Source: an uncultured Bacilli bacterium (lineage in GTDB: Bacteria; Bacillota_I; Bacilli_A; RF39; UBA660). From it: a DNA stretch of 64,000 nt. Within the stretch, counting starts at the first letter, position 1, and each line of letters begins with the position of its first letter. The stretch covers positions 13,643 to 77,642 of the forward strand of contig CAKOXX010000003.1 of assembly GCA_934130405.1 (NCBI GenBank). The letters run 5' to 3'. The notes under the pieces were generated by a model. The model was not told the origin of the DNA and searched no databases. It was given only the letters and a program-made list of their open reading frames with translations. Of the stretch, positions 31,118 through 41,937 are shown piece after piece. The translations under genes and the position numbers were made by a program.

Positions 31118-32044
31118 TTAGATTGTTTTTTCCTTTATTTTAGTTTTAGTTGCTGCTACTAGTGATAACTCACTATCTAATGAAGAGATAATATCTTCTT
31201 TTTTTATTTTTGATAGATTATTTTGTAATTTATCACACTCGTCACGACTAGTAGTTTCTGTATACATTTTTAACGATGGTAATAAGATGATTGGTTCCTT
31301 ACACGTACCTACTGTTCTTTTGATGTAGTCAAGTTGATAATCCTCTTTTACTTCGTCTATTATTCTTAATGTTGGTATTAATAAACCTGTACTTTTATAG
31401 TAATCATTTTTAGACAACTTTTGGACAAATAAGGCTTGTCTTTTACTCTTTGAATTATTAATAGAATCAGCTGCTTTCAATACTTGGTTTCTATCAATAG
31501 TTTCTTGATCATATAATAATTCACTAATTCCACGAGCTTTATATTCTTCTTTACTTTCCATTACTTTCTTAGCAAGTTCAAAACTAATATTTTCTTTATT
31601 TGCTAAAGAATTTAGTAATATATTTCTTTCAGCTTCTCTTTGAAAGCTTTCTTTTGAAGTTCTTAATAATATTATAGCATCTAATACTATATTCTTTTCA
31701 TGAAGTGAAGAATTACATATAACATCTCGCATGCAAGTAAGTAAGACTTCATCTTCTACTCCTGACAAAACATTTGCATAATACATTATATCTTCTTTAG
31801 AAAGAAATGAATAACATAATAATTTATTAAGTCCTATTGAATATTTATTTTCAACTAATTCTTTCAATTGTGATTTAGATAATTTTCCTTCTTGAACAGC
31901 TGAAAGTGACATCATTTCTAATATTCTATCAATAATAACTTTATCATTTGTTTCTTTAAGTAATTCTACTACTATGTCACTTTTTCCTGCTAAATTTATT
32001 TCATATCCCATTGATTTTAATTTTTCTTTTACTTCTTCAAACAC
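31118..32044 (-). CDS. hypothetical helical-repeat protein
   Basis: 308-aa ORF with a good SD (AGGAGG). All-helical, with no motif I can name. Confidence 0.5.
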   Translation of the reverse strand: MFEEVKEKLKSMGYEINLAGKSDIVVELLKETNDKVIIDRILEMMSLSAVQEGKLSKSQLKELVENKYSIGLNKLLCYSFLSKEDIMYYANVLSGVEDEVLLTCMRDVICNSSLHEKNIVLDAIILLRTSKESFQREAERNILLNSLANKENISFELAKKVMESKEEYKARGISELLYDQETIDRNQVLKAADSINNSKSKRQALFVQKLSKNDYYKSTGLLIPTLRIIDEVKEDYQLDYIKRTVGTCKEPIILLPSLKMYTETTSRDECDKLQNNLSKIKKEDIISSLDSELSLVAATKTKIKEKTI

Positions 32045-32109
32045 TTTAAACCTCCTAAAACAGCGTTTAAATTAGTATAGCACAATATTAGTGATTTTTT
32101 ACATCCCTT

Positions 32110-33084
32110 TTAATTTTGAAAATAAATTTGTTCTCCAGTAATTAAAGGATAATGAATTAAAGTACTACCATTCAAATTTTCTTTATGCATATCTACTGCA
32201 GTAATCTGGTGATTATTATAAGTTGTATAGTAATATATTCCCTTATTCGTATTGCAACAAGATGTATATATTGTAATTTCAAATTTATTGTTACCTAAAT
32301 CACAGCAACCTCTTTGTTGATCAACTGAATTTAAGATATGAAAAAACTGACTAACACTTGCTATCTCATTTTCTTCTGATAAAGAATTCATTTTAACAAA
32401 TGCTACTCTGACAAAACGAGACATGCTTGATAAATCTCCTGGTAGTCCTAATGCTCCTAGGCCTCTACTATAGGAATCAAAGTTTAGTTTATTGTTAAAG
32501 GTATTTTCTTTATTTTTTGGAGACAAGCCACTATAATTATTTAAATTGAAAAGTTGTTTATCAAAGGTAGGATTATTTGTTAAGACACCTACTGGATTGT
32601 CATATATCTTAAGTCCTTCTTTTACTGATTCTAAAGTAATGCAGTCTTCTTTATCAGATATAATCCAGTGCAATTGAGCAAGTGGTAATTCTTCACTGAA
32701 TGCCTCATTAGTAATATTAATTTTTTCTAATAGTTTTTTTACTTCCTTTACAGAAGAACAACTTCCTAATAAATAAGGAATTAACTCAAATTGAGCAATA
32801 TTTTCTTTATTTAATTGTCTTTCGTTATAATAGGCATTACCTACGAAGTTTAATCCTGCTATTGCTAACCCTTCTTCATTAACTGCATCATAGTATAGAG
32901 GATAATCATCTGAAATGAATGCCATTCCTATTATTGCGTAATGACTAGTCAAATTATTAACATTTCTAAATTTAAATTCATAATTTCTAGGAGTTATAGT
33001 AACTTCTTCTTTATATGAGTATTCATAATCTAAAGTTCTACCAAAATAAAAATCTTTTGTTTTATAAGTTGCAGCTGTGCACAT
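32110..33084 (-). CDS. choloylglycine hydrolase family protein (bile salt hydrolase-like Ntn hydrolase)
   Basis: Begins MCTAATYKTKDFYFGRTLD. This gives the Cys2 nucleophile after Met removal and the conserved FGR.LD. Length is 324 aa. Confidence 0.85.
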   Translation of the reverse strand: MCTAATYKTKDFYFGRTLDYEYSYKEEVTITPRNYEFKFRNVNNLTSHYAIIGMAFISDDYPLYYDAVNEEGLAIAGLNFVGNAYYNERQLNKENIAQFELIPYLLGSCSSVKEVKKLLEKINITNEAFSEELPLAQLHWIISDKEDCITLESVKEGLKIYDNPVGVLTNNPTFDKQLFNLNNYSGLSPKNKENTFNNKLNFDSYSRGLGALGLPGDLSSMSRFVRVAFVKMNSLSEENEIASVSQFFHILNSVDQQRGCCDLGNNKFEITIYTSCCNTNKGIYYYTTYNNHQITAVDMHKENLNGSTLIHYPLITGEQIYFQN

Positions 33085-33150
33085 ATTTTTCCTCTTTTCT
33101 TAATATTTATACTAGATTTATTATTTTAATAATTTCTATAAATAATGGCA

Positions 33151-33672
33151 TTATCTATCACTAAATTTCGAACAAATCAATAAGTCTTGTATTACGTCAT
33201 CTTTAGATATAAATCTATTACTTAATGTAGCCTCAAGTTTCATTCCAATATTTTGCGCTACTTTTATACTTGCTATATTTTTGCTTGGAATTATTGCTTC
33301 TATAACATTATAATTCAAATCATATAGTAAATAATCACTTATCTTTTTAAGTGCTTCAGTCATAAAACCATTATTAAAATATTTGCTAGATATACTATAT
33401 CCCAGTTCTATACACTTATATTTATAAGAGTGTGTACCACTAATTACTCCTATAACTTGATGATTTTCTTTATATTCTATTACCCATTGGAAATCGTTAT
33501 TTTTACAGGACCTTTTTAGATTTTCTATAAATTTTTCAGTTTGTTTCTTTGAGGTATGAGCTTTAAATGTTAAGTACTTAGTGGTAATTAAATCACTACT
33601 CCAGTTATTAAATAAATCATCTAAATCACTATCTTCTACTGGTCTCAAAATTAATCTATCTGTTTCTAACAT
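33151..33672 (-). CDS. GNAT family N-acetyltransferase (RimJ/RimL-like)
   Basis: TDRLILRP start typical of RimJ/L-type GNATs, and an acetyl-CoA motif region ...NNGFMTEALK... Confidence 0.8.
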   Translation of the reverse strand: MLETDRLILRPVEDSDLDDLFNNWSSDLITTKYLTFKAHTSKKQTEKFIENLKRSCKNNDFQWVIEYKENHQVIGVISGTHSYKYKCIELGYSISSKYFNNGFMTEALKKISDYLLYDLNYNVIEAIIPSKNIASIKVAQNIGMKLEATLSNRFISKDDVIQDLLICSKFSDR

Positions 33673-33738
33673 TTTAGTACCTTTCTAATATATTTGGTTA
33701 TTCTTTTTAAATAATATTTTTCTAAAACAGTATTTAAA

Positions 33739-34395
33739 TTATTTTTTCATCTTGTTAAAAAAGAATTTTTTTGTTCCGTGATAATCACGAGAAACTAGTA
33801 TTTCATTATCTTTAAAATATGTAGATTGATGATATCCCACAAGTTCAAATCCTAACTTTTCCATAATTCTCCAAGAACCAGAATTTACTTCAGCTGCTGA
33901 TGTATAAATGTCTGTTATGTCAACTTCTTCAAACATAAAAGTAAGAACAGCTATTGCTGCTTCTGTAGCATAACCTTGTCCTTGATATTCTGGGGCAATA
34001 AACCAACCAACATCTCTAATATTTTCTGGTTGATTCTTTTTTTGTTGACAAGTAATTTGGCCAATTAAAATATCAGAATTCTTTAAAAATACACTCCACG
34101 TAAACTTTTGACTATCTTCCTGATTTTTTACAGTTTCTATTTTAGATTCATAAAATACTTTTTGTCTTTCCCAATCACAAAGTTGCTTTAAAAAAATTTT
34201 TCTTGCTAATTTTAAGTCATCTAATTTATTTTTACTCAAGTTATTTTTTTTAAATATTCTATCTGGTGTTGGAAAATAATATTGATTTACATTCTCGTCA
34301 CTCAATATTTCCCACAATCTATGTTGTTCAGACATTGTAGGAATTTTTAAATCCAATCTTTCTGTATATAAATTTTTAGAATTAATTTTATTCAC
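33739..34395 (-). CDS. GNAT family N-acetyltransferase
   Basis: TERLDLKIP start and YQGQGYATEAA (Q/RxxGxG/A acetyl-CoA motif). It overlaps the upstream gene by 4 nt. Confidence 0.8.
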   Translation of the reverse strand: MNKINSKNLYTERLDLKIPTMSEQHRLWEILSDENVNQYYFPTPDRIFKKNNLSKNKLDDLKLARKIFLKQLCDWERQKVFYESKIETVKNQEDSQKFTWSVFLKNSDILIGQITCQQKKNQPENIRDVGWFIAPEYQGQGYATEAAIAVLTFMFEEVDITDIYTSAAEVNSGSWRIMEKLGFELVGYHQSTYFKDNEILVSRDYHGTKKFFFNKMKK

Positions 34396-34826
34396 TCTAT
34401 ATCTTCCTCAATATTTTTAATTTCATCATCTAATTTCATATCTATATTTTCATTTACTAATATATTATAATTTTCATTACATTCATCAGCTATACAATTT
34501 AACTTAAAGTTGAAAGTTTTTTTATCTATTCTTTCAACAATACATTTGTGATAACCATAAACTAAAGAAATCCAACCCTTTTTATCTTCATAAGAAATAT
34601 CTGATAAGCTGTCACTTATATCCACTTGTTTACCTACATTTAATTTTGTAAATAAGTTTCTATCATACGTTGTTTCTATTCTTATACGAATTCTATCTTC
34701 TACCAATGTGAGTGTAATGATTGGTGATTCTCCTTTTATAACTTTACCTAATCTTTTCTTTTGATATTTACCATATGATACACTTATCACTGGATTATTA
34801 TAAGTAATTTTATTTATTATTATCAT
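34392..34826 (-). CDS. hypothetical protein
   Basis: 144-aa ORF translationally coupled (ATGA) to the downstream GNAT. No recognisable family. Confidence 0.45.
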   Translation of the reverse strand: MIIINKITYNNPVISVSYGKYQKKRLGKVIKGESPIITLTLVEDRIRIRIETTYDRNLFTKLNVGKQVDISDSLSDISYEDKKGWISLVYGYHKCIVERIDKKTFNFKLNCIADECNENYNILVNENIDMKLDDEIKNIEEDIE

Positions 34827-34868
34827 ATAAAAATACCACTCTTCCTTTATATCAATTAATGGTAATGC

Positions 34869-35414
34869 TTAACCAATTGATAAGTTTTTTTCAAGTATTT
34901 TACCACTTAATGAATCTACAATTGGAACACTATAATTATATTTTTCTAATAATTTCTTTATTTTCCAATATTTTTCATTAAAGTTATTATCATACATACC
35001 TATACCTACTAGTTGATGATTAAGATTAATAGATTCATTCAACCTTATTTCTCCGGCATCACCATATTGTAAACTATATTTTCTTGAATCAAGGATATTT
35101 GCTAGAAATATAAAAGATATGTTGAAACGTATATAATGATAAAAAGCAGTACTATAATTTTCGTTATTATAAACGTATGCAAATTGTTTATTTTTAGGAT
35201 GAATCGCTAAACATATTTCATTATTATCTTGTTCATATATATCTGGTAAATTATTATAATATGAATAATTGTCTGATAATAAATCTTTTCTTGATTTTAT
35301 TTTTCTTGTTTTTAATATTTGTTCAAATATTATCAAGTCACTAACTTTTTCTTTGTAAAATTCAAGATTTATTCCGTGAAAAATTTTATCTTCTATATTT
35401 ATCTTGTTAATCAT
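34869..35414 (-). CDS. hypothetical protein
   Basis: 181-aa ORF with no recognisable family. Weak H...Y...E spacing (FHGINL ... YHYIRF ... GEIRL) is noted under findings only. Confidence 0.45.
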   Translation of the reverse strand: MINKINIEDKIFHGINLEFYKEKVSDLIIFEQILKTRKIKSRKDLLSDNYSYYNNLPDIYEQDNNEICLAIHPKNKQFAYVYNNENYSTAFYHYIRFNISFIFLANILDSRKYSLQYGDAGEIRLNESINLNHQLVGIGMYDNNFNEKYWKIKKLLEKYNYSVPIVDSLSGKILEKNLSIG

Positions 35415-35451: not shown

Positions 35452-35966
35452 TTATATTTTGTTCCTGATAAGTAGCTTTCTCATTAATTGATAAATTCTA
35501 TTTGCTTGCCAATCTATTTTCTCTTGATGAGCTTCATTAGTTTTTAATCTCTCAAATTCAGTTATTAAATATAATTTAAACTCTGGAGATAGCCAACTTG
35601 CAAATTCAAATGCAATATCTGGATGGGCATATGTTCCAATACTATATCGCCCGCCTTTTGAAATTATTCCTTAGTTCTTTTTATCCATTGTGTCGGTGAC
35701 ATTGCAAACGAGTTTCTACCGTACTCAGTTTTAATTTAGTCGAATTCGACCAAATTAAAATCTTGATTATGAATTTCTTCTCATAGTCCAATATAATCAA
35801 TAGTATTTATTCTTCTTAACCAGTTTTTAACTGTAAAAGATGGATTACTTGAATTTTGATATTTTGCTAAATCAGTTAAAGAAATGTAATTAACATTTCC
35901 AACTCTTAGTATTACCACCTTATTTTCTTTAACTATTATTTCTACTGTTACTAAATCTTTTTTCAA
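35452..35966 (-). pseudogene. KilA-N domain protein gene, inactivated
   Basis: The N-terminus (35781-35966, ...ISLTDLAKY...NWLRRINTIDYIGL) is interrupted by an in-frame TGA at the expected Trp of GLWE. A TAA then replaces an expected Gln codon. After a frameshift, an open frame reads GIISKGGRYSIGTYAHPDIAFEFASWLSPEFKLYLITEFERLK... Confidence 0.7.
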
Positions 35967-35989: not shown

Positions 35990-36033
35990 GATTTTAAAAG
36001 GTGTCAACAAATATAATAATTGTTCACACCTTT
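35990..36033 (-). terminator. strong hairpin, probable ancestral secA terminator
   Basis: 14-bp stem with one mismatch (AAAGGTGTCAACAA / TTGTTCACACCTTT) about 95 nt downstream of the displaced SEC-C remnant. The T-run is short on the minus strand (TTTT). Confidence 0.4.
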
Positions 36034-36115: not shown

Positions 36116-36186
36116 CTTATTTTATGTTACTTTCCACAACAGTTTTTATACTTTTTGCCGCTTCCACAAGTTGTAGAAACTCCCAT
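36116..36186 (-). pseudogene. displaced remnant of a secA 3' end (SEC-C motif)
   Basis: The minus strand reads ATG GGA GTT TCT ACA ACT TGT GGA AGC GGC AAA AAG TAT AAA AAC TGT TGT GGA AAG TAA, i.e. ...CGSGKKYKNCCGK-stop. Of the last 42 nt, 33 are identical to the real secA end (39374-39415). Both copies are followed by CATAAAATAAG. Confidence 0.65.
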
Positions 36187-36301
36187 ATTTATAATACTTA
36201 TAATATTTATAATATTATTGATATTTCAATGTTTTATCGTTTTGGGAACCTATTATATTTATAATATTTATAGTATTTTGGTTATTATAAATATTTCTCT
36301 C

Positions 36302-36330
36302 TTGCAAACAAATTGCAAACAATGTTTGCA
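36302..36330. repeat. TTGCAAACA repeat cluster A (two direct copies plus one inverted)
   Basis: TTGCAAACA-AA-TTGCAAACA-A-TGTTTGCA. The first 20 nt are identical to 39293-39312. Confidence 0.8.
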
Positions 36331-36696
36331 TTCATTTACTACGGTCATTATACTATCTATATCATATATTTACCAATGTGCGTTTTGTATTTTTGCACAT
36401 TTATTATACTATAAATATTTGTTTTTATCAATGAATCTATCCAATTATTTATATTTAATAATTTCTTCTATAATTTCAGATTTTGTTATCTTATCAAAAA
36501 CATCAGTTGCTAATTGTTTAGATTTTTCTGTACTTGAAATATAGTGATTTTCTAATAAATATTTAACAACTTCATTATTTTTATTTTATTTCATACAAAA
36601 ATCCTTCCTCGGTTCTATATTTCTATATTAACATGGAAAGGATTTTCTCTTTACAAAAAAGTATTTACAGACTCACTTTTAATCATCTTTTTAAAT

Positions 36697-37680
36697 TTAT
36701 TTTATTTGTTTATCAATTCTAGTTTCAATATGTTTTACTAACTTTATACTTGATTCAACTTCATTAGTTGTGTGTCCAGTAAACTCAGATAATTTTTTAA
36801 CATCACTATTAGAAGAAAGACAATATCTTCCTGCATAAATAACTTCACTAATTGTTATTAATGCTTCATTTTTATTTTGCTCATTAGAAATTGTTTCTCT
36901 TATAGTTTCACCAACGATTTTAATTATTTTTTTAGGCTCTTCGGCTAATTTTACACTATCTTCAAGACTACTTACTTCCCCTAAAGGATATAATTTATTA
37001 ACTCTTTGTTGTAATTCTAATGATAATGGCATATTTTCTTTTTCACATATTCTAAAGCCATAATTATCTCCTAAAGATATGCCAAACTCAGCTAAAATAC
37101 ATATCATTGTTTGAACTTTTATATTGATATCTTCTTTGGTAAAATCAGGATTTTCATCATAAAATAACTTATACATTTCTATTAATGCTTTGTCATCTGT
37201 ACCTAAAACAATGGTTGTGGTATTCTTTAAATAATAAATTTGTTGCATAATTTCAGTAATTTCTTTAGATACTAATTCAATACCTGGATAATCTACTACA
37301 TCGGTTGCATGATTATTGTAATCTAATTTTATACCATAAGGTAGTTCATATTTAATTTTATATTTATCAGAATAATCGCTATTTTCTTCTTTTTTGCTTC
37401 TGCTATATAAGAATAAATTAGAATTATCATACTTAACATGTTCTGAACCTTTTTCATCTTGATAAAAAATATCTAATAACTTTTCTTCACAATCTTTCAA
37501 TATCGTTCTTACAATGCGAACATTTTCTATCATATAATTATGTCTATGATTATTTATAAAATCTTCTAATAATACATCAATCTTGTCTAAATCCGTATTA
37601 TCACTTGATATACCTTTGTATCTTACTTCTATACTACCTTTTGCAAAATTTAATGTTTTACTAATACTTATTGGTTTCAT
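36697..37680 (-). CDS. hypothetical protein (327 aa), cargo of the decayed element
   Basis: Intact ORF with an AGGAGGAG SD. The C-terminal half (KVQTMICILAEFGISLGDNYGFRICEKENMPLSLEL...) faintly resembles DUF4065/Panacea-type domains, but this is not secure. Confidence 0.5.
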   Translation of the reverse strand: MKPISISKTLNFAKGSIEVRYKGISSDNTDLDKIDVLLEDFINNHRHNYMIENVRIVRTILKDCEEKLLDIFYQDEKGSEHVKYDNSNLFLYSRSKKEENSDYSDKYKIKYELPYGIKLDYNNHATDVVDYPGIELVSKEITEIMQQIYYLKNTTTIVLGTDDKALIEMYKLFYDENPDFTKEDINIKVQTMICILAEFGISLGDNYGFRICEKENMPLSLELQQRVNKLYPLGEVSSLEDSVKLAEEPKKIIKIVGETIRETISNEQNKNEALITISEVIYAGRYCLSSNSDVKKLSEFTGHTTNEVESSIKLVKHIETRIDKQIK

Positions 37681-37811
37681 TAAATCTCCTCCTAAATTGC
37701 TGTATATAATAGCAAAGGTTAGTTAAAATGTCAAATTCTATAATTCCATTAATATTTTTCAATAATCTTTTTTTACAATAGATATCTATTTTTCTTAAAA
37801 TAAATTTAGAT

Positions 37812-38027
37812 CTAAGTGATACCATACAATTTTTTTAACTTGTCCTGTTTTAATTTAAAATTATTCAATGCCATATATAATGTTTGACTAATATGAATTT
37901 TGCGAGTTCCTGTTTCTGTTTTTGTTGTACCTATAAACCATCTACCTTTTTCATCTTTTGGTTTATCATATACATTATGTTTGATAGATATTATTCCATT
38001 TTCTAAATCAATATCATCCCAAGTCAA
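37812..38027 (-). pseudogene. tyrosine recombinase fragment (start of the catalytic domain only)
   Basis: ...LTWDDIDLENGIISI...TKTETGTRKIHISQTLYMAL... is the conserved beginning of phage-integrase catalytic domains. It stops before the H-x-x-R/Y region. Confidence 0.7.
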
Positions 38028-38100
38028 AGCAAATAAAAAGACCAGAATTTTTTTCTGATATACACATATAAATTATTTTTCATATTTATTGTTATAACAG

Positions 38101-38697
38101 TTATTTAAGCTTATTTATTTTATCATTAAACTCAATTAATGATTTTTCGACATCTATTAAATATCTTTTATAAGTTACATTATCTCTATCTTTAACTTTA
38201 TCTATATATTCTCCAAAATTATTTTCAATTATCTTAGATGATCCTATATTATCTTCTTTACAAGTAATCATCACTTTACTAAGGTCATTTTCTTGTGCCT
38301 TTTCAAGTAACAAATGACAAAAATAAGTACCGAAACCTTTCCCTCTCTTATCAGGTCTTATTCCATAACCAATGTGCCCACCTGTTTCTTTTAAAATATT
38401 ATTACATTCAGGATTAATCCTTAACGAACCACTTCCTATAATCTCATTGTCATAAATTAAATAATATAAAAATATTGATACTCCACTATAGCATTCTTTA
38501 TCAGAGAATCCTTTACTATCATTTATTATATTATTTAACCAATATCCAAAATTAATATTTACCCACGAACTTAAACTTTTTTCTGATATACACCCTAGCT
38601 CAAATAATTTTTTTTCATAATTTATTATCATCTCTTTATCATTTTGATTAGGAAATTTTAAAAATAATTTATTATAATCAATAAAATCATTATTCAT
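38101..38697 (-). CDS. GNAT family N-acetyltransferase
   Basis: IGYGIRPDKRGKGFGTYFCHLLL acetyl-CoA binding motif; 198 aa. Confidence 0.8.
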   Translation of the reverse strand: MNNDFIDYNKLFLKFPNQNDKEMIINYEKKLFELGCISEKSLSSWVNINFGYWLNNIINDSKGFSDKECYSGVSIFLYYLIYDNEIIGSGSLRINPECNNILKETGGHIGYGIRPDKRGKGFGTYFCHLLLEKAQENDLSKVMITCKEDNIGSSKIIENNFGEYIDKVKDRDNVTYKRYLIDVEKSLIEFNDKINKLK

Positions 38698-38779
38698 TCT
38701 AAACCTCCAAAAATTTTAATACAACTTATCTTTTTATCTTTATATCACTATACACTAAATAATTGATTATTTAAAATAT

Positions 38780-39013
38780 TTACAAAAACTTTTTTCTTAT
38801 TTCATTAATTAATTTACTAATCTCTGAGTAATATAATTTTAAATCATTAAAATATATCTCCCAAGTTGTATTAGCAATCTTTGCAATTTGATTTATATTG
38901 ATTCCAATGTTATTAATTTTATTTAATAAGTCATAGAATTCTTTAGGTGGAACTTCTTTAAAAATAATATTATTTAAACTAGATCTAATAACTTCATTTG
39001 CACTTAATCCAGT
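38780..39013 (-). pseudogene. MobC-like mobilization protein, C-terminal fragment
   Basis: An open frame without a start reads TGLSANEVIRSSL...LLNKINNIGININQIAKIANTTWEIY...LINEIRKKFL-stop. The IGxNxNQIAK..N core is the MobC relaxosome-protein signature. It is fused at its 5' side to the integrase fragment's stop. Confidence 0.55.
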
Positions 39014-39225
39014 TAATCTAGATAATCAGAATATGACATTGTTTTAGGTTTAAAACTATGTCCAGTATTCAAATACTCATTGTATGCAATAATACCTGCT
39101 TGTTTTACTTCGCTTTTTGTTGTGAATCCCGACTTATTTTTAAATTTTCTTTTTCCATCGATTGAAGCAATTTCAAATTTATATTTATATCCTTCCCATC
39201 TTTTTTGAACTATTACATCAGCCAT
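39013..39225 (-). pseudogene. tyrosine integrase N-terminal fragment (AP2-like Arm DNA-binding domain)
   Basis: MADVIVQKRWEGYKYKFEIASIDGKRKFKNKSGFTTKSEVKQAGIIAYNEY... matches the Arm-type domain pattern (GKRK..K.GF.TK.EA). It is truncated after 70 aa. Confidence 0.65.
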
Positions 39226-39257
39226 AATAATTTCTCATCCATTTACAATTAAGTAAA

Positions 39258-39284
39258 TGAAAAAGTTGACACGAATGCCAACTT
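39258..39284 (-). terminator. rho-independent terminator between secA and the integrase fragment
   Basis: AAGTTG-N10-CAACTT hairpin followed by TTTTTC on the minus strand. Confidence 0.5.
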
Positions 39285-39289
39285 TATAG

Positions 39290-39312
39290 TGTTTGCAAAC
39301 AAATTGCAAACA
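39290..39312. repeat. TTGCAAACA repeat cluster B
   Basis: TGTTTGCAAACA (perfect 12-bp palindrome)-AA-TTGCAAACA. It lies between the secA stop and the integrase fragment. Confidence 0.8.
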
Positions 39313-39373
39313 TTTTGCCATTTTCAGCACTTTTTTAAATTTTCCAAAATTGCTCAAACCCTTATTTTATGGG

Positions 39374-41860
39374 CTATTTACCACAACATTGTTTATATTT
39401 TTTACCACTGCCACAAGGACAAGGATCATTACGACCTACTTTTGTACTCTTCTTAGGTTTCTTTACTGCATCTGATTTGTCATCATTAGTTTGAACACTT
39501 TTAGTGACAGGTTTACGTTCAATATTTTGTTGAATCTCGGCTTTTAATAAGAAAACACTAACATCATGATCAATCTTTTGTAACATTTGATCAAATAAAT
39601 CAAAACCTTCTGTACTATATGCTCTTAATGGATCTTCTTGACCATAACTACGTAAATAAATTCCTTCACGTAAATGACTCATTATGTTAATTTGTTCCAT
39701 CCAGTAATTATCAATAACTTGTAAAGATAGTGCTTTTTCAAATTCACTAGTAACTTCTACTGGAACATCACTAAGTTTTTCTTCATACTCAGATTTTGCT
39801 TTATTATATAGAAAATCAACTATTTCATCATCTATCATTGAATTAATTTCATCATCTTTAATATCATCTCTTAGAAGATTCTCATTAGCAAAAGAAACAA
39901 TTTCTTTCTTATCTTGTTCACTCATATCACCATCAACAGTATGAGACTTAACTAAATCAGTAACATAATTTCTCATACATTCAAGTACTTGTTCGTGAAC
40001 TGAATCACTATCTAGAATCTCATTTCTTCTACCATACATGATTTCACGTTGGGTATTCATTACGTCATCATATTGTAGCAATTGTTTTCTAGCATCAAAG
40101 TTATTTCCTTCAACTCTTTTTTGAGCAGTTGTAATGGCTTTTGAAAAATATTTATTTTGAATAGCTTGATCTCCGAAACCAAAACTAGTCATCATTTCTT
40201 TAATCTTTTCACTACCAAAACGAATCATTAAATCGTCTTCCATAGATACAAAGAATTGTGTAAATCCGGGATCACCTTGACGACCAGAACGTCCTCTTAA
40301 CTGATTATCAATACGACGTGATTCATGACGTTCAGTACCAATTACACAAAGTCCACCTAATTCTCTGATTTCATCTGATAACTTAATATCAGTACCACGA
40401 CCAGCCATATTAGTAGCGATAGTAACTGATTTATGTTGACCAATCTTAGAAATTATTTCTGCTTCTCTTGCATGATTCTTAGCATTTAATATTTCGTGAG
40501 GAATCTTTTCTTTCTTTAATAAAGTACTAATCAATTCACTAGTTTCAATAGCAATAGTACCAATTAAGACAGGTTGACCTTTGGCATATCTTTCTTTTAC
40601 TTCATTAATAATTGCTTTATATTTAGCATTTTTAGTAGCAAATACTAAGTCAGGAGCATCAATTCTAGCAACTGGTTTATTTGTAGGAATACAAATTACA
40701 TACATATTATAAATATCACGGAATTCTTCCTCTTCTGTTTTAGCAGTACCAGTCATACCTGATAATTTCTTATACATTCTAAATAAGTTCTGGAAAGTTA
40801 TAGTGGCTAAAGTCTTTGTCTCTTGATTAATACGAACTCCTTCTTTAGCTTCAATTGCTTGATGAAGTCCATCACTATAGGCACGACCTTTCATCAAACG
40901 TCCAGTAAATTGGTCTACTATAACAACTTCTCCATCTTGAACAACATAATCAACATCTAATTTCATTGAATAATTTGCTCTTAAAGCTTGATTAATATAA
41001 TGAACTAAAGTAGCATTTTCTACTTCATAAAGATTTTTAACTCTAAAGGCTTTTTCTGCTTTCTCACTACCTTCATCTGTTAATGTTACACTTTTAGTAG
41101 TTTCATCATATAAGTAATCAACATCATCCTTTAAACTCTTTACAAAGCTATCGGCATCTTGATAAAGGTTAGCACTAACTAACTGACCTCCAGAAATAAT
41201 TAAAGGAGTTCTTGCTTCATCGATTAAAACTGAATCTACTTCATCAACGATAGCAAAATTTAATGGTCTTTGAACTCTGTCTTCTTTTCTAATAACCATA
41301 TTATCTCTTAGGTAATCAAAACCGATTTCATTATTAGTAGAATATAAAATATCACAAGCATAAGCTTCCTGCTTTTCTTTTGGATTTAGTTCTCTTGTAT
41401 TAACTCCTACTGTTAAACCTAAAAATCTATGAATGCCACCCATCCATTCTGCATCACGAGTAGCTAAGTATTCATTAACAGTAATAATATGAACACCTTT
41501 TCCGTCTAAAGCATTTAAATAAGCTGGTAATACTGATGTTAAAGTTTTACCTTCACCAGTTTTCATTTCTGCTATATTACCATAGTGAATAGCTAAAGCA
41601 CCAACTATTTGAACATAGAAAGGTTTTTCTCCAATAACACGATAGGCGGCTTCTCTTGCTGTTGCAAAAGCTTCTACTAATATATCTTCTAATGTTTCAC
41701 CATTTGCTAAACGTTTCTTAAATTCTTCTGTTTTATTTTTTAACTCTTCATCTGATAATTTTTGGTATTCTTCATCAAGTGCAACTATTTTATCAGCTAA
41801 AGATTCAAATTTTTTTAATTCTTTATATTCATGATCAAACAATCTTGTAAATATTCCCAT
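39374..41860 (-). CDS. secA: preprotein translocase ATPase SecA
   Basis: Full-length SecA with MKTGEGKT Walker A, DEVDS, helicase motifs and a C-terminal SEC-C zinc motif CPCGSGKKYKQCCGK. The start is moved to MGIFTRLF (ATG 41860, GAGGAG SD). Confidence 0.97.
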   Translation of the reverse strand: MGIFTRLFDHEYKELKKFESLADKIVALDEEYQKLSDEELKNKTEEFKKRLANGETLEDILVEAFATAREAAYRVIGEKPFYVQIVGALAIHYGNIAEMKTGEGKTLTSVLPAYLNALDGKGVHIITVNEYLATRDAEWMGGIHRFLGLTVGVNTRELNPKEKQEAYACDILYSTNNEIGFDYLRDNMVIRKEDRVQRPLNFAIVDEVDSVLIDEARTPLIISGGQLVSANLYQDADSFVKSLKDDVDYLYDETTKSVTLTDEGSEKAEKAFRVKNLYEVENATLVHYINQALRANYSMKLDVDYVVQDGEVVIVDQFTGRLMKGRAYSDGLHQAIEAKEGVRINQETKTLATITFQNLFRMYKKLSGMTGTAKTEEEEFRDIYNMYVICIPTNKPVARIDAPDLVFATKNAKYKAIINEVKERYAKGQPVLIGTIAIETSELISTLLKKEKIPHEILNAKNHAREAEIISKIGQHKSVTIATNMAGRGTDIKLSDEIRELGGLCVIGTERHESRRIDNQLRGRSGRQGDPGFTQFFVSMEDDLMIRFGSEKIKEMMTSFGFGDQAIQNKYFSKAITTAQKRVEGNNFDARKQLLQYDDVMNTQREIMYGRRNEILDSDSVHEQVLECMRNYVTDLVKSHTVDGDMSEQDKKEIVSFANENLLRDDIKDDEINSMIDDEIVDFLYNKAKSEYEEKLSDVPVEVTSEFEKALSLQVIDNYWMEQINIMSHLREGIYLRSYGQEDPLRAYSTEGFDLFDQMLQKIDHDVSVFLLKAEIQQNIERKPVTKSVQTNDDKSDAVKKPKKSTKVGRNDPCPCGSGKKYKQCCGK

Positions 41861-41937
41861 TGTAAACATCTCCTCAAGGATTATTGTAACAAAAAAAGGA
41901 GACAATAGAAAGCATTTTCTCCCATTTTACACTATTT

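Follow-up and report, generated by a model that had tools for sequence, protein, structure and literature searches.

The island of about 3.2 kb that directly follows the essential secA gene in the window (the whole stretch of 64,000 nucleotides analyzed here) appears, with a probability of roughly 0.85 judging from sequence comparison, to be a non-autonomous remnant (36116-39415) of a tyrosine-recombinase element whose family, including IMEs, inserts into the last codons of secA. The island is bracketed by the live secA end and a 19-codon remnant. The family is a known kind of element with a new target, the last codons of secA. The core of the initial annotation, namely a site-specific mobilizable element that brought along a secA 3' end of its own, inserted in frame into the SEC-C codons and subsequently decayed, is borne out by a survey of 80 related loci, by relatives encoding a Mob_Pre relaxase and by the junction found in a sister species (L100). 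The features described initially are all there, with coordinates that are exact or off by a few bases. The relevant features are as follows:

39374-41860, minus strand: secA, intact, 828 aa from the ATG at 41860 (ORF list)
39361-39415, minus strand: common segment of the putative attR, consisting of the last 13 secA codons, the stop, CC and CATAAAATAAG (33/42 match to the remnant; pattern statistics)
39381-39388, minus strand: TGTTGTGG (Cys-Cys-Gly codons) in live secA, the likely crossover block, identical in both copies
39226-39360, minus strand: P' arm, with spacer, arm-type sites and a terminator-like hairpin just upstream of the integrase start
39293-39312, minus strand: P'-arm arm-type pair, TGTTTGCA ATT TGTTTGCA A, 11-nt period, 20/20 identical to the P-arm pair
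39262-39285, minus strand: element-borne hairpin, AAAGTTGGCATTCGTGTCAACTTT then a T run (terminator scan)
39013-39225, minus strand: integrase N-terminal fragment, residues 1-70, arm-binding domain with the GKRKF signature (Arm-DNA-bind_4)
38780-39025, minus strand: MobC C-terminal fragment (PF05713)
38101-38697, minus strand: GNAT acetyltransferase gene, 198 aa, intact (Pfam Acetyltransf_1 and Acetyltransf_3)
37812-38027, minus strand: integrase middle fragment, residues 215-283, IntB type (identity to intact integrases)
36697-37680, minus strand: 327-aa gene, intact, conserved family
36445-36579, minus strand: integrase C-terminal fragment, residues ~388-421 with the stop, IntB type
36187-36444, minus strand: P arm, arm-type sites then AT-rich repetitive spacer (homology to other P arms; repeats D2 and I1)
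36302-36321, minus strand: P-arm arm-type pair (TGTTTGCAATTTGTTTGCAA), with an inverted third copy overlapping at 36314-36330
36116-36186, minus strand: putative attL, consisting of the 19-codon SEC-C micro-ORF (36127-36186) and CATAAAATAAG (36116-36126), with TGTTGTGG at 36134-36141
35997-36033, minus strand: terminator-like hairpin downstream of the remnant (folding; shared with the sister species)
35452-35963, minus strand: frameshifted KilA-N pseudogene, outside the 3.2-kb island (Pfam KilA-N, E = 5e-18, stitched translation)

The open frame of secA extends to a TTG at 41905 in the ORF list; in identical contigs, the gene is called as 828 aa with SecA and SEC-C Pfam domains, and its product ends in a SEC-C motif (CPCGSGKKYKQCCGK before the stop). 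The micro-ORF encodes MGVSTTCGSGKKYKNCCGK followed by a stop and, as originally annotated, 33 of its last 42 nt are identical to the secA end (39374-39415), with eight of the nine mismatches in the third codon position, one in the first, and a single amino acid change (Q/N). Both copies are followed by CATAAAATAAG (36116-36126 and 39361-39371), which at secA is shifted by two extra bases (CC) past the stop. A degenerate SEC-C-end pattern is found exactly twice in the 64 kb, on the secA strand in both cases, against an expectation of 0.00 from shuffles. Taken alone, the 33/42 match is weak, since the peptide itself is conserved and few codons are in common use at 27% G+C; the case for a candidate att pair rests on the arms and the comparative data rather than on this match.

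Just inside each end of the island lies one copy of a perfect 20-nt direct repeat, TTGCAAACAAATTGCAAACA (36302-36321 and 39293-39312), which the initial annotation had missed. The arm-site 9-mer occurs six times, compared to 0.87 expected. In many loci, the P'-arm sites are located at a fixed offset of +103/+114 from the SEC-C pattern, and in the relatives the arm motifs are confined to the ends of the units, at +103, +114 and +183 on one side and at -143/-154 on the other. The motif agrees between both ends of each unit and falls into four classes (TTGTTTGCA, TTGTCGCCA, TTGTTGCC and TTGTCCAC) that co-vary with the integrase arm-domain residues GKRKF, KRKR and RKW; the combination in the window is GKRKF with TGTTTGCA. 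The same P'-arm layout is present in L001, L004, L005, L008 and L010, and the P arm of the window is homologous to those of L001, L008, L010, L056 and L057.

Both ends also carry hairpins. The 56-nt segment 39235-39290, which includes the hairpin at 39262-39285 and an adjacent second hairpin, folds at -18 kcal/mol (z = -5.6); homologous hairpins are present in other P' arms, and the one at 39262-39285 now lies between live secA and the integrase remnant. The hairpin at 35997-36033, previously proposed to be the original secA terminator, is real (the 61 nt of 35985-36045 fold at -16.8 kcal/mol, z = -4.96, with 0/200 shuffles as good). It also follows the full-length secA of the sister species (L100, L090), and a similar hairpin is found after the distal site in L056. 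Its proposed role as the old secA terminator is possible, although the flank in which it lies is itself mosaic mobile DNA.

The two integrase fragments recognized initially are both genuine, but the actual count is three, and the fragments are collinear, aligning with positions 1-70, 215-283 and 388-421 of a family whose members are 425 aa long. The N-terminal fragment matches Arm-DNA-bind_4 at 21.7 bits (cut-off 22.3) and shares 61-70% identity with the first 70 residues of intact 425-aa integrases; the databases searched contained no intact integrase above ~70%, and all 27 closest database relatives of this fragment are likewise truncated. The middle fragment shows 65-74% identity to residues 215-283, reaching 74% with IntB versus 37% with IntA. 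The C-terminal fragment (36445-36579, minus strand), previously unnoticed, has its stop 277 nt before the SEC-C remnant, and the equivalent gap is 254-340 nt in 20 intact relatives. The three fragments represent at least one and probably two integrase types. The MobC fragment was confirmed, with an exact extent of 38780-39025 on the minus strand (PF05713 at 25.9 bits, cut-off 23.2), and its tail is joined out of frame to the N-terminal integrase fragment. The island retains neither a relaxase nor an excisionase.

The survey encompassed 80 related loci from different GTDB species (1.01 Mb); at E<=1e-20, the databases contain at least 2400 members of the integrase family. The association with secA is family-wide: the intact integrase relatives in every case adjoin secA or a SEC-C remnant and share one orientation, with 83 SEC-C-end patterns on the integrase strand and 0 on the opposite strand. 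All 15 IntA-type genes begin 273-294 nt past such a pattern, 20 of the 55 IntB genes finish 254-340 nt ahead of one, and full-length secA is located upstream in 22 loci. In five loci (e.g., L044), prfB lies 0.4-3 kb past the last remnant. Some of the relatives encode a Mob_Pre relaxase, an excisionase and an integrase, and the gene order in L019 is secA, IntA, TnpV, cargo, AAA_25, Mob_Pre, HTH_17, IntB, remnant. IntB identity between L009 and L010 is 98%, compared to 65% for the adjoining secA halves. Relatives commonly show tandem arrays and hybrid junctions at this site (L001, L004, L008, L010, L013).

In the sister species L100, secA831 is directly followed by sequence 92.9% identical to window positions 36159-35484, so the same distal junction exists there without the island; an intact 294-aa ortholog of the KilA-N pseudogene comes after secA. 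The 5.3 kb between the remnant and prfB, with the KilA-N pseudogene and other genes, probably represent mobile debris accreted earlier, and would therefore not mark the original chromosomal side of the site. Within the species of the window, the 18 contigs with the exact secA protein all carry the island, at ~99.9% identity or more; none of them shows an empty site, and no circular junction or excision product was detected.

The left 27 nt of the micro-ORF match the P arm of L057 at 25 positions and that of L004 at 24, compared to 21 for the window's own secA, which suggests that its coding part is probably the SEC-C mimic of the element and not the displaced native end. When the attP-like junction of L004 and the island-free junction of L090/L100 are compared, the halves to the left and right of TGTTGTGG swap partners. 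The exchange most likely occurred within the shared TGTTGTGG, in the Cys-Cys-Gly codons, and therefore the element would have contributed only about two final codons of live secA, its stop and its terminator. This mapping relies on proxies, with L004 standing in for attP and L090/L100 for the right half of attB (L090 being a recombinant or chimeric assembly), and because each of the two types of right-half sequence is also found in arms belonging to other elements (L101), native and element-derived halves are not assignable with certainty. Thus, the earlier suggestion that the SEC-C zinc-finger coding sequence was replaced likely holds for the last two or so codons, the stop and the terminator, but is overstated for the rest.

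In its literal form, that suggestion takes the micro-ORF to be the entire displaced native 3' end of secA, with all of the live SEC-C end (~13 codons) borne by the element. Such an arrangement is the standard picture for most elements targeting tRNA or gene 3' ends, and the live secA end differs at only 2/56 nt from the element-borne copy at the L001 tandem junction. Nevertheless, it is improbable given that the left part (27 nt) of the micro-ORF, together with the preceding ATATGGGAGT, resembles P arms more than any secA (17-21/27), that ATG-started micro-ORFs of the same form are present in the P arms of L056, L057 and L076, and that the sequence directly upstream is conserved, non-coding P arm. 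The same upstream sequence bears on the possibility, raised in the initial annotation itself, that an unrelated SEC-C gene (YecA/UPF0149-like) decayed in place and left the micro-ORF as its terminal piece, the likeness to secA reflecting only a zinc-finger peptide and AT-rich codons. At 27% G+C, two independent SEC-C motifs would share about three quarters of their bases through codon bias alone, so that the 33/42 match is not decisive. However, the region upstream has no coding similarity and consists of AT-rich spacer and arm sites common to dozens of elements, 11 non-coding nucleotides match past the stop, the 83 of 83 copies on the integrase strand in the relatives lie at fixed distances from integrase genes, and L100 has full-length secA in the same position. 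This candidate was rejected as extremely improbable.

A more serious, although still doubtful, alternative to a decayed remnant is that the island is alive as a CIME-like unit whose att and arm sites are used by integrases of incoming relatives, that it excises or moves after tandem accretion, and that the GNAT and 327-aa genes are maintained cargo. In favor of this, the two arm-site pairs agree at 20/20 positions, compared to 9/42 differences between the SEC-C repeats, neither cargo gene is disrupted and the 327-aa protein belongs to a conserved family, tandem arrays and hybrid junctions are common in relatives, as noted above, and in one sample the assembly is broken inside the P arm (L097 ends at 36403, L093 starts at 36543). 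Against this stand the occupancy of all 18 contigs, the lack of an intact GKRKF-type integrase within the 64-kb window, and the shortened P' arm, from which the inverted third arm site located at +183 in intact relatives is absent.

Under the preferred reading, a remnant of a secA-targeting element, attP of the circular form would consist of a P arm in which two to three arm-type sites precede an AT-rich spacer, a central imitation of the SEC-C coding end of ~45 nt, and a P' arm with a ~60-nt spacer, tandem arm-type sites repeating every 11 nt and a terminator-like hairpin. When this attP recombines with the 3' end of secA, probably in the invariant TGYTGYGG block (Cys-Cys-Gly codons), the secA frame would be kept, with the element providing the final codons, stop and terminator, and the SEC-C imitation would land at the far end, joined to the former downstream DNA of secA. 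Subsequent decay in the window would have spared both att sites and both arm-site pairs and eliminated the recombination and transfer genes: one integrase was apparently cut to 70 codons and fused to the MobC tail, an IntB-type integrase was reduced to its middle and C-terminal pieces, and two apparently intact cargo genes were left. The island is fixed in the lineage and, in this CIME-like state, would be movable, if at all, only by an integrase acting in trans. The anatomy, the family-wide link to secA, the co-variation of arm sites with arm domains and the island-free junction of the sister species are observed directly, whereas we infer where exactly the crossover took place, in which order the deletions arose and that the island no longer moves.

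Of the two remaining genes, the GNAT gene (38101-38697), confirmed with Pfam, is probable cargo; GNATs with ~31% identity are encoded in L017, L073, L066 and L011, and the L017 copy is located inside a delimited element. The 327-aa gene is intact, as annotated, but is not an orphan: its family includes 299 cluster representatives at E<=1e-3, 82 of these at E<=1e-30. The protein has no match in Pfam, PHROGs, PADLOC, NCBIfam, PDB or BFVD; its AlphaFold model has a pLDDT of 92.

The secA 3' end had been flagged as an unusual att site, and a full-text literature search found no paper describing one, which is absence of evidence only; in a text search, the word secA was absent from surveys of streptococcal ICEs and IMEs. 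Elements that insert at gene 3' ends and carry a replacement copy in attP include ICESt1/ICESt3 at fda and Tn5801 at guaA, and streptococcal ICEs and IMEs at rplL, rpsI, rpmG and lysS display the same type of targeting. Shared with the secA family are the tyrosine integrase adjoining the att site, direct repeats with the last codons of the gene, an intact target, and tandem accretion and decay at the site; the secA family is distinguished by its target, the SEC-C zinc-finger end, and by its hosts, which are uncultured gut Bacilli of low G+C content or 'Clostridium' MAGs. Pavlovic and colleagues (2004, Microbiology 150:759) reportedly described CIMEs together with tandem accretion at the ICESt1-type sites of Streptococcus thermophilus. 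Like CIMEs, the island has functional-looking att flanks without working recombination or transfer genes, would be derived from an ICE or IME by deletion, and sits in a hot spot of tandemly stacked relatives; unlike them, it keeps recognizable fragments of integrase(s) and mobC.

With lambda-type heterobivalent integrases and Tn916/Tn1549 Int, the family shares the N-terminal arm-binding domain (Pfam Arm-DNA-bind_4), two to three arm sites per arm at helical-repeat spacing and, in IntB-type relatives, the gene order xis-int-attP. The closest solved structure is Tn1549 Int (6EMY, E = 5e-14), whereas identity to characterized integrases is low, at most 32% (Clostridioides difficile phage integrases), and, in contrast to lambda-type integrases, many units of the secA family have two paralogous integrases, one per end, with a common arm specificity. 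As in tRNA/tmRNA 3'-end integration, a short, near-invariant host sequence is exploited and restored from the copy in the element, but at secA the invariance comes from zinc-binding Cys codons and AT-biased codon use rather than from RNA structure.

The island at the 3' end of secA is an element of a known type, in which integration is directed to the conserved 3' end of a gene and the replacement is supplied by the element, and with it the SEC-C-coding end of secA joins the attachment sites used by integrative elements. In the window (G+C content 27%), two copies of the SEC-C end lie on the same strand, 3247 nt apart, namely the live secA end (the attR side) and a remnant contained in a micro-ORF (the attL side). 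The features of the island and its surroundings are the following.

39374-41860, minus strand: secA, 828 aa on identical public contigs, C-terminus ...CPCGSGKKYKQCCGK and stop
39293-39312 and 36302-36321: 20-nt direct repeat TGTTTGCAATTTGTTTGCAA (secA strand), identical at 20/20 positions, just inside either island end
39013-39225: integrase N-terminal fragment, residues 1-70 of the 425-aa family
38780-39025: MobC tail of 81 residues, PF05713 above cut-off
within the island, before the next fragment: GNAT gene
37812-38027: second (middle) integrase fragment, IntB type, residues 215-283
36697-37680: uninterrupted 327-aa ORF between the two IntB pieces
36445-36579: third integrase fragment, C-terminus, residues 388-421, stop kept, ending 277 nt before the remnant
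36127-36186, minus strand: 19-codon micro-ORF, translated as MGVSTTCGSGKKYKNCCGK and stop
35997-36033: hairpin, -16.8 kcal/mol, z = -4.96
35452-35963: frameshifted KilA-N pseudogene; an intact 294-aa ortholog follows secA in the sister species

The last 42 nt of the micro-ORF are identical to the secA end at 33 positions, with eight of the nine differences at third codon positions, and CATAAAATAAG is found 3' of both copies, with a 2-base offset at secA. A degenerate pattern of the SEC-C coding end has exactly two matches in the 64 kb, each of them on the secA strand, and none in 100 shuffles; a protein-motif scan in six frames revealed no third copy in the window. The duplication reported in the initial annotation, including the block that follows both copies, is therefore borne out, and the same applies to the strong hairpin beyond the remnant. 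The secA reading frame is open up to its own stop in the ORF list, so that the target gene is left whole. The integrase and MobC fragments and the GNAT gene were also recognized correctly in that annotation, which counted two integrase pieces where there are three and included neither the 20-nt direct repeat nor the KilA-N pseudogene. Two ORFs of 70 and 71 codons in the window are integrase-pseudogene pieces. Relatives encode whole 425-aa proteins, but the window holds only three fragments and no working tyrosine integrase gene, and the element in it is thus a remnant rather than a working member of the family. The MobC tail is the sole piece of a transfer gene, no relaxase being encoded in the island. 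The window remnant, with both att sites and arm sites in place and every mobility gene fragmentary, accordingly has the make-up of a CIME rather than of an IME, which would carry its own relaxase/oriT module without a conjugation pore. It might also be mobilized by a related element after accretion, and relatives do contain tandem arrays. As for a prophage, there are no phage structural or lysis genes in the window (PHROGs yields a single weak acetyltransferase match) or in the relatives examined. Among solved integrases, that of Tn1549 comes closest (E = 5e-14), and the closest phage integrases are 32% identical. Rfam and tRNA scans gave no match inside or next to the island.

The crossover point was approached by aligning the live end, the remnant, an attP-like junction in the related contig L004 and the island-free end of secA831, the 831-aa secA of a sister species. 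In the left halves, the remnant pairs with L004 or with another related locus, L057, over 24-25 of 27 nt. In the right halves, the live end pairs with L004 (TAAATAGCCCATAAAATAAGGG) and the remnant with secA831 (AAAGTA[A/G]CATAAAATAA), and the switch of partners falls at the common TGTTGTGG. This pattern fits a crossover in the Cys-Cys-Gly codons, in which case the live secA would owe to the element no more than its last two codons and stop, along with the hairpin downstream, and the micro-ORF would in its coding part be the element's imitation of the gene end. The last codons and the terminator of secA are probably foreign. The initial proposal of a site-specific element at the secA 3' end holds up, but the wholesale replacement of the SEC-C codons that it included gives way to an exchange that appears to involve only the last two codons and the stop. 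Both types of right half are also present in the arms of other elements. An alternative origin of the remnant is a YecA/UPF0149-like gene that decayed in place; upstream of the SEC-C motif, however, there is an AT-rich spacer with arm sites, that is, a conserved P arm (the element arm at the remnant end), and no coding similarity is left, so that this candidate was rejected. ATG-started micro-ORFs of 19-20 codons that end in the SEC-C motif are found in the P arms of the window and of three related loci (L056, ~11544; L057, ~4124; L076, ~6365), with peptides such as MGVQS[SF]CGSGKKYKNCCGK and MVKGRACGSGKKYKNCCGK, each followed by a stop; none of these P-arm micro-ORFs has an obvious ribosome-binding site.

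Every SEC-C copy is surrounded, at fixed offsets, by 8- to 9-mers arranged in tandem with a period of 11 nt (+103, +114 and an inverted copy at +183 on one side, -143 to -156 on the other). The motif is found only downstream of true secA ends and only upstream of terminal remnants; the motif on the P' side (the arm just downstream of the live secA) of one SEC-C copy is the same as that on the P side of the next copy, and there are no arm motifs inside the 3-12-kb units. The four motif classes, TTGTTTGCA, TTGTCGCCA, TTGTTGCC and TTGTCCAC, co-vary with the integrase arm-domain residues GKRKF, KRKR, KRKR and RKW/RQW, respectively, which is true of both paralogous integrase types, IntA and IntB, in one unit; in the window, GKRKF is paired with TGTTTGCA. 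These repeats carry the signature of genuine arm-type sites and are putative binding sites of the lambda type. Given the matched arm sites at both ends, the window island is one bounded unit. The natural co-variation of arm motifs and arm-domain residues is a ready source of data on how integrases recognize their DNA. In the window, the part of the P arm that separates the arm sites from the SEC-C copy is filled with AT-rich periodic repeats (TATAATATTTATAATA-like, 36176-36297) that include a direct 52-nt pair (77%) and an inverted 40-nt pair; equivalent AT-rich tracts are present in the P arms of relatives, and the repeats may be bending or accessory-factor sites.

The 70-aa integrase N fragment, used as a query, returned only truncated proteins of 48-123 aa (27 of 27 matches), and no intact close relative was found by this route. 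In the gut-metagenome contig L001, one of the truncated matches adjoins an intact 425-aa integrase, which is 61% identical to the window N fragment and 65% to the middle fragment and opened the way to a family whose members in the databases number at least 2400 (E<=1e-20). In the window, the middle and C-terminal pieces belong to the IntB subtype (74% identity to IntB vs 37% to IntA), and the N piece is compatible with either type. A scan of one genome per GTDB species with the integrase alignment yielded 80 loci, together 1.01 Mb. The MAGs that contain them are all of low G+C content and bear the labels uncultured Clostridium, Clostridia, Bacilli, Mollicutes, Tenericutes or Coprovivens. The SEC-C-end pattern is present in 60 of these loci, with 83 copies on the integrase strand and 0 on the opposite one, which places intact relatives of the integrase next to secA or a copy of its end; 22 of the 80 have a full-length secA upstream in the same orientation. 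All 15 IntA-type genes begin 273-294 nt past a SEC-C copy. IntB genes end 254-340 nt ahead of a copy in 20 of 55 cases and begin 274-294 nt past one in 5 of 63. In five loci, prfB, the usual downstream partner of secA, is located 0.4-3 kb past the last remnant, the clean case being L044, where secA is followed by a 6.6-kb element, the remnant and prfB.

The units vary in content. The L019 unit follows the order secA, IntA, TnpV, MntP, HTH regulator, AAA_25, Mob_Pre relaxase, HTH_17, IntB and remnant, with no conjugation-pore gene among the scanned ORFs; Mob_Pre and HTH_17 accompany the integrase in L001 and L003 as well. The 4.5-kb unit of L010 encodes only an integrase and five cargo genes. 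The IntB proteins of L009 and L010 are 98% identical vs 65% for the adjoining secA C-terminal halves, and further pairs show 92% vs 67% and 89% vs 62%. One attP would thus serve hosts whose secA is only about 65% identical because protein function allows hardly any change in the Cys-Cys-Gly codons. Tandem arrays and scar junctions are common (e.g., L001, L004, L008, L010 and L013), and attP-like junctions were seen only within tandem arrays (L001, L004 and L010). At 8007-8300 of L010, a distal SEC-C copy and the P' arm up to its arm repeats are fused directly to a P-arm-like AT-rich tract, which looks like the scar of a whole-unit deletion via recombination between both arm-site pairs.

All 18 contigs with the exact secA of the window carry the island, so that no empty site was found among them. 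The usable island-free reference is the arrangement of the sister species typified by L100 and found in four places, with secA831, the same hairpin, an intact KilA-N gene and no island. The 686 nt past the Cys-Cys-Gly codons of L100 are 92.9% identical to 36159-35484 of the window, a flank that is itself mobile debris, and compared with this arrangement, the DNA inserted in the window amounts to the P' arm, the island and the P arm, plus the left part of the remnant, and nothing else. The species with secA831 also has occupied variants (L101), and in L100, the KilA-N gene is followed by an integrase N fragment and a vanRS/vanG-type cluster; the flank itself is thus a mosaic of mobile DNA. Between the two species, the KilA-N stretch shows 93% identity vs 71% for secA, which points to recent exchange of that segment. 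Another contig, L090, joins secA831 (71% nt identity to the window secA) directly to the window flank; it was ruled out as a same-species empty site because its secA comes from a different abundant species. Near 36007 it becomes identical to the window, 25 of its 26 mismatches being confined to the first 150 nt, and this switch of species implies that the contig either is a recombinant between species that arose at the hot spot or was assembled as a chimera from the metagenome. In L090/L099 (ERZ27287162 k141_1386450), the secA and upstream genes of the other species are joined to 11 kb that are one base off the window. In sample ERZ27287188, L097 (ending at window 36403) and L093 (starting at window 36543) overlap inside the P arm by roughly the length of an assembly k-mer, which hints at strain-level structural variation at this point. 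The DNA from the remnant to prfB (about 5.3 kb) comprises part of the window at 31118-35414 along with the KilA-N pseudogene and encodes, besides the latter, 181-aa and 144-aa proteins, two GNATs, a choloylglycine (bile-salt) hydrolase and a 308-aa protein. No further SEC-C remnants were found there, and this DNA is probably cargo of an older accretion between secA and prfB, which normally form a tight pair.

Many arm-bounded units encode two paralogous tyrosine integrases (L009, L011, L013, L016, L019, L021, L023, L029, L038, L056, L066, L069, L078 and L086), with IntA directly after the P' arm and IntB either directly before the P arm or internal. The two types are about 42% identical overall, with nearly identical N-terminal arm domains within one unit. 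In the single integrase of L044, an N-terminus identical to that of IntA is combined with an IntB-like body, a mosaic suggesting that hybrids form by recombination between the two genes. That such units are two joined elements was considered and rejected since the arm motifs occur solely at the unit ends, with no internal att arms. The simplest ancestor of the window island would be an L019-like unit in which the P'-end integrase was truncated at codon 70 and fused to the mobC tail, the relaxase and excisionase were lost, and only residues 215-283 and 388-end were left of the distal IntB. Alternatively, several accreted units may have been brought down to the present island by deletions. One junction in the island is marked by a 19/20 direct repeat (38046-38065 and 38574-38593). 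One copy of this repeat lies within the GNAT gene, towards its 5' end, and the other at the junction with the integrase middle fragment, and it may be the footprint of the rearrangement behind that junction.

A broader reading, that the secA-prfB interval of these uncultured gut Bacilli is a dedicated accretion hot spot for a large family of units with dual co-evolved integrases, the gutted remnants of which keep working att sites, is tentative and, with all its parts taken jointly, rather unlikely. Within this reading, the shared arm specificity of IntA and IntB suggests a division of labour or a route for making hybrids, and single-integrase derivatives could arise via recombination between the near-identical 5' ends of the two genes. 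If so, incoming relatives could pick up remnant cargo, vanG-type clusters included, and shuffle it between species.

Full-text searches identified no description of the secA 3' end as an att site, and secA is nowhere mentioned in the surveys of streptococcal ICEs and IMEs that were searched; the only near match is a group B Streptococcus ICE described as lying "between uvrB and secA", given without site analysis (PMC12441131). As regards the window, the outcome is modest because its island is fixed and decayed, and the value lies in the family and the attachment site. The SEC-C-end copy combined with arm repeats of 11-nt period at fixed offsets provides a simple signature by which islands of a large, undescribed family can be delimited in uncultured gut Bacillota; some of these islands carry resistance-type cargo.

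Among 87 related loci, the MobC fragment and the 327-aa gene have no match, and the GNAT gene is the sole island cargo with counterparts, distant ones. For the 327-aa protein, initially taken for an orphan, 299 cluster representatives were found at E<=1e-3, almost all of them 310-330 aa long, but no family match in Pfam, PHROGs, PADLOC or NCBIfam. Its AlphaFold model (pLDDT 92) consists of an N-terminal beta region followed by a helical domain, a predicted fold with no significant match in PDB or BFVD. In related gut species, vanG-type clusters are located at the same secA-linked hot spot, directly after a truncated integrase N fragment (L001-L004, e.g., L001 8627-15851, and L100 from 11230), and encode vanR, vanS, VanW, a D-Ala-D-Ala-ligase-family protein, VanY and an acyltransferase with alanine racemase.
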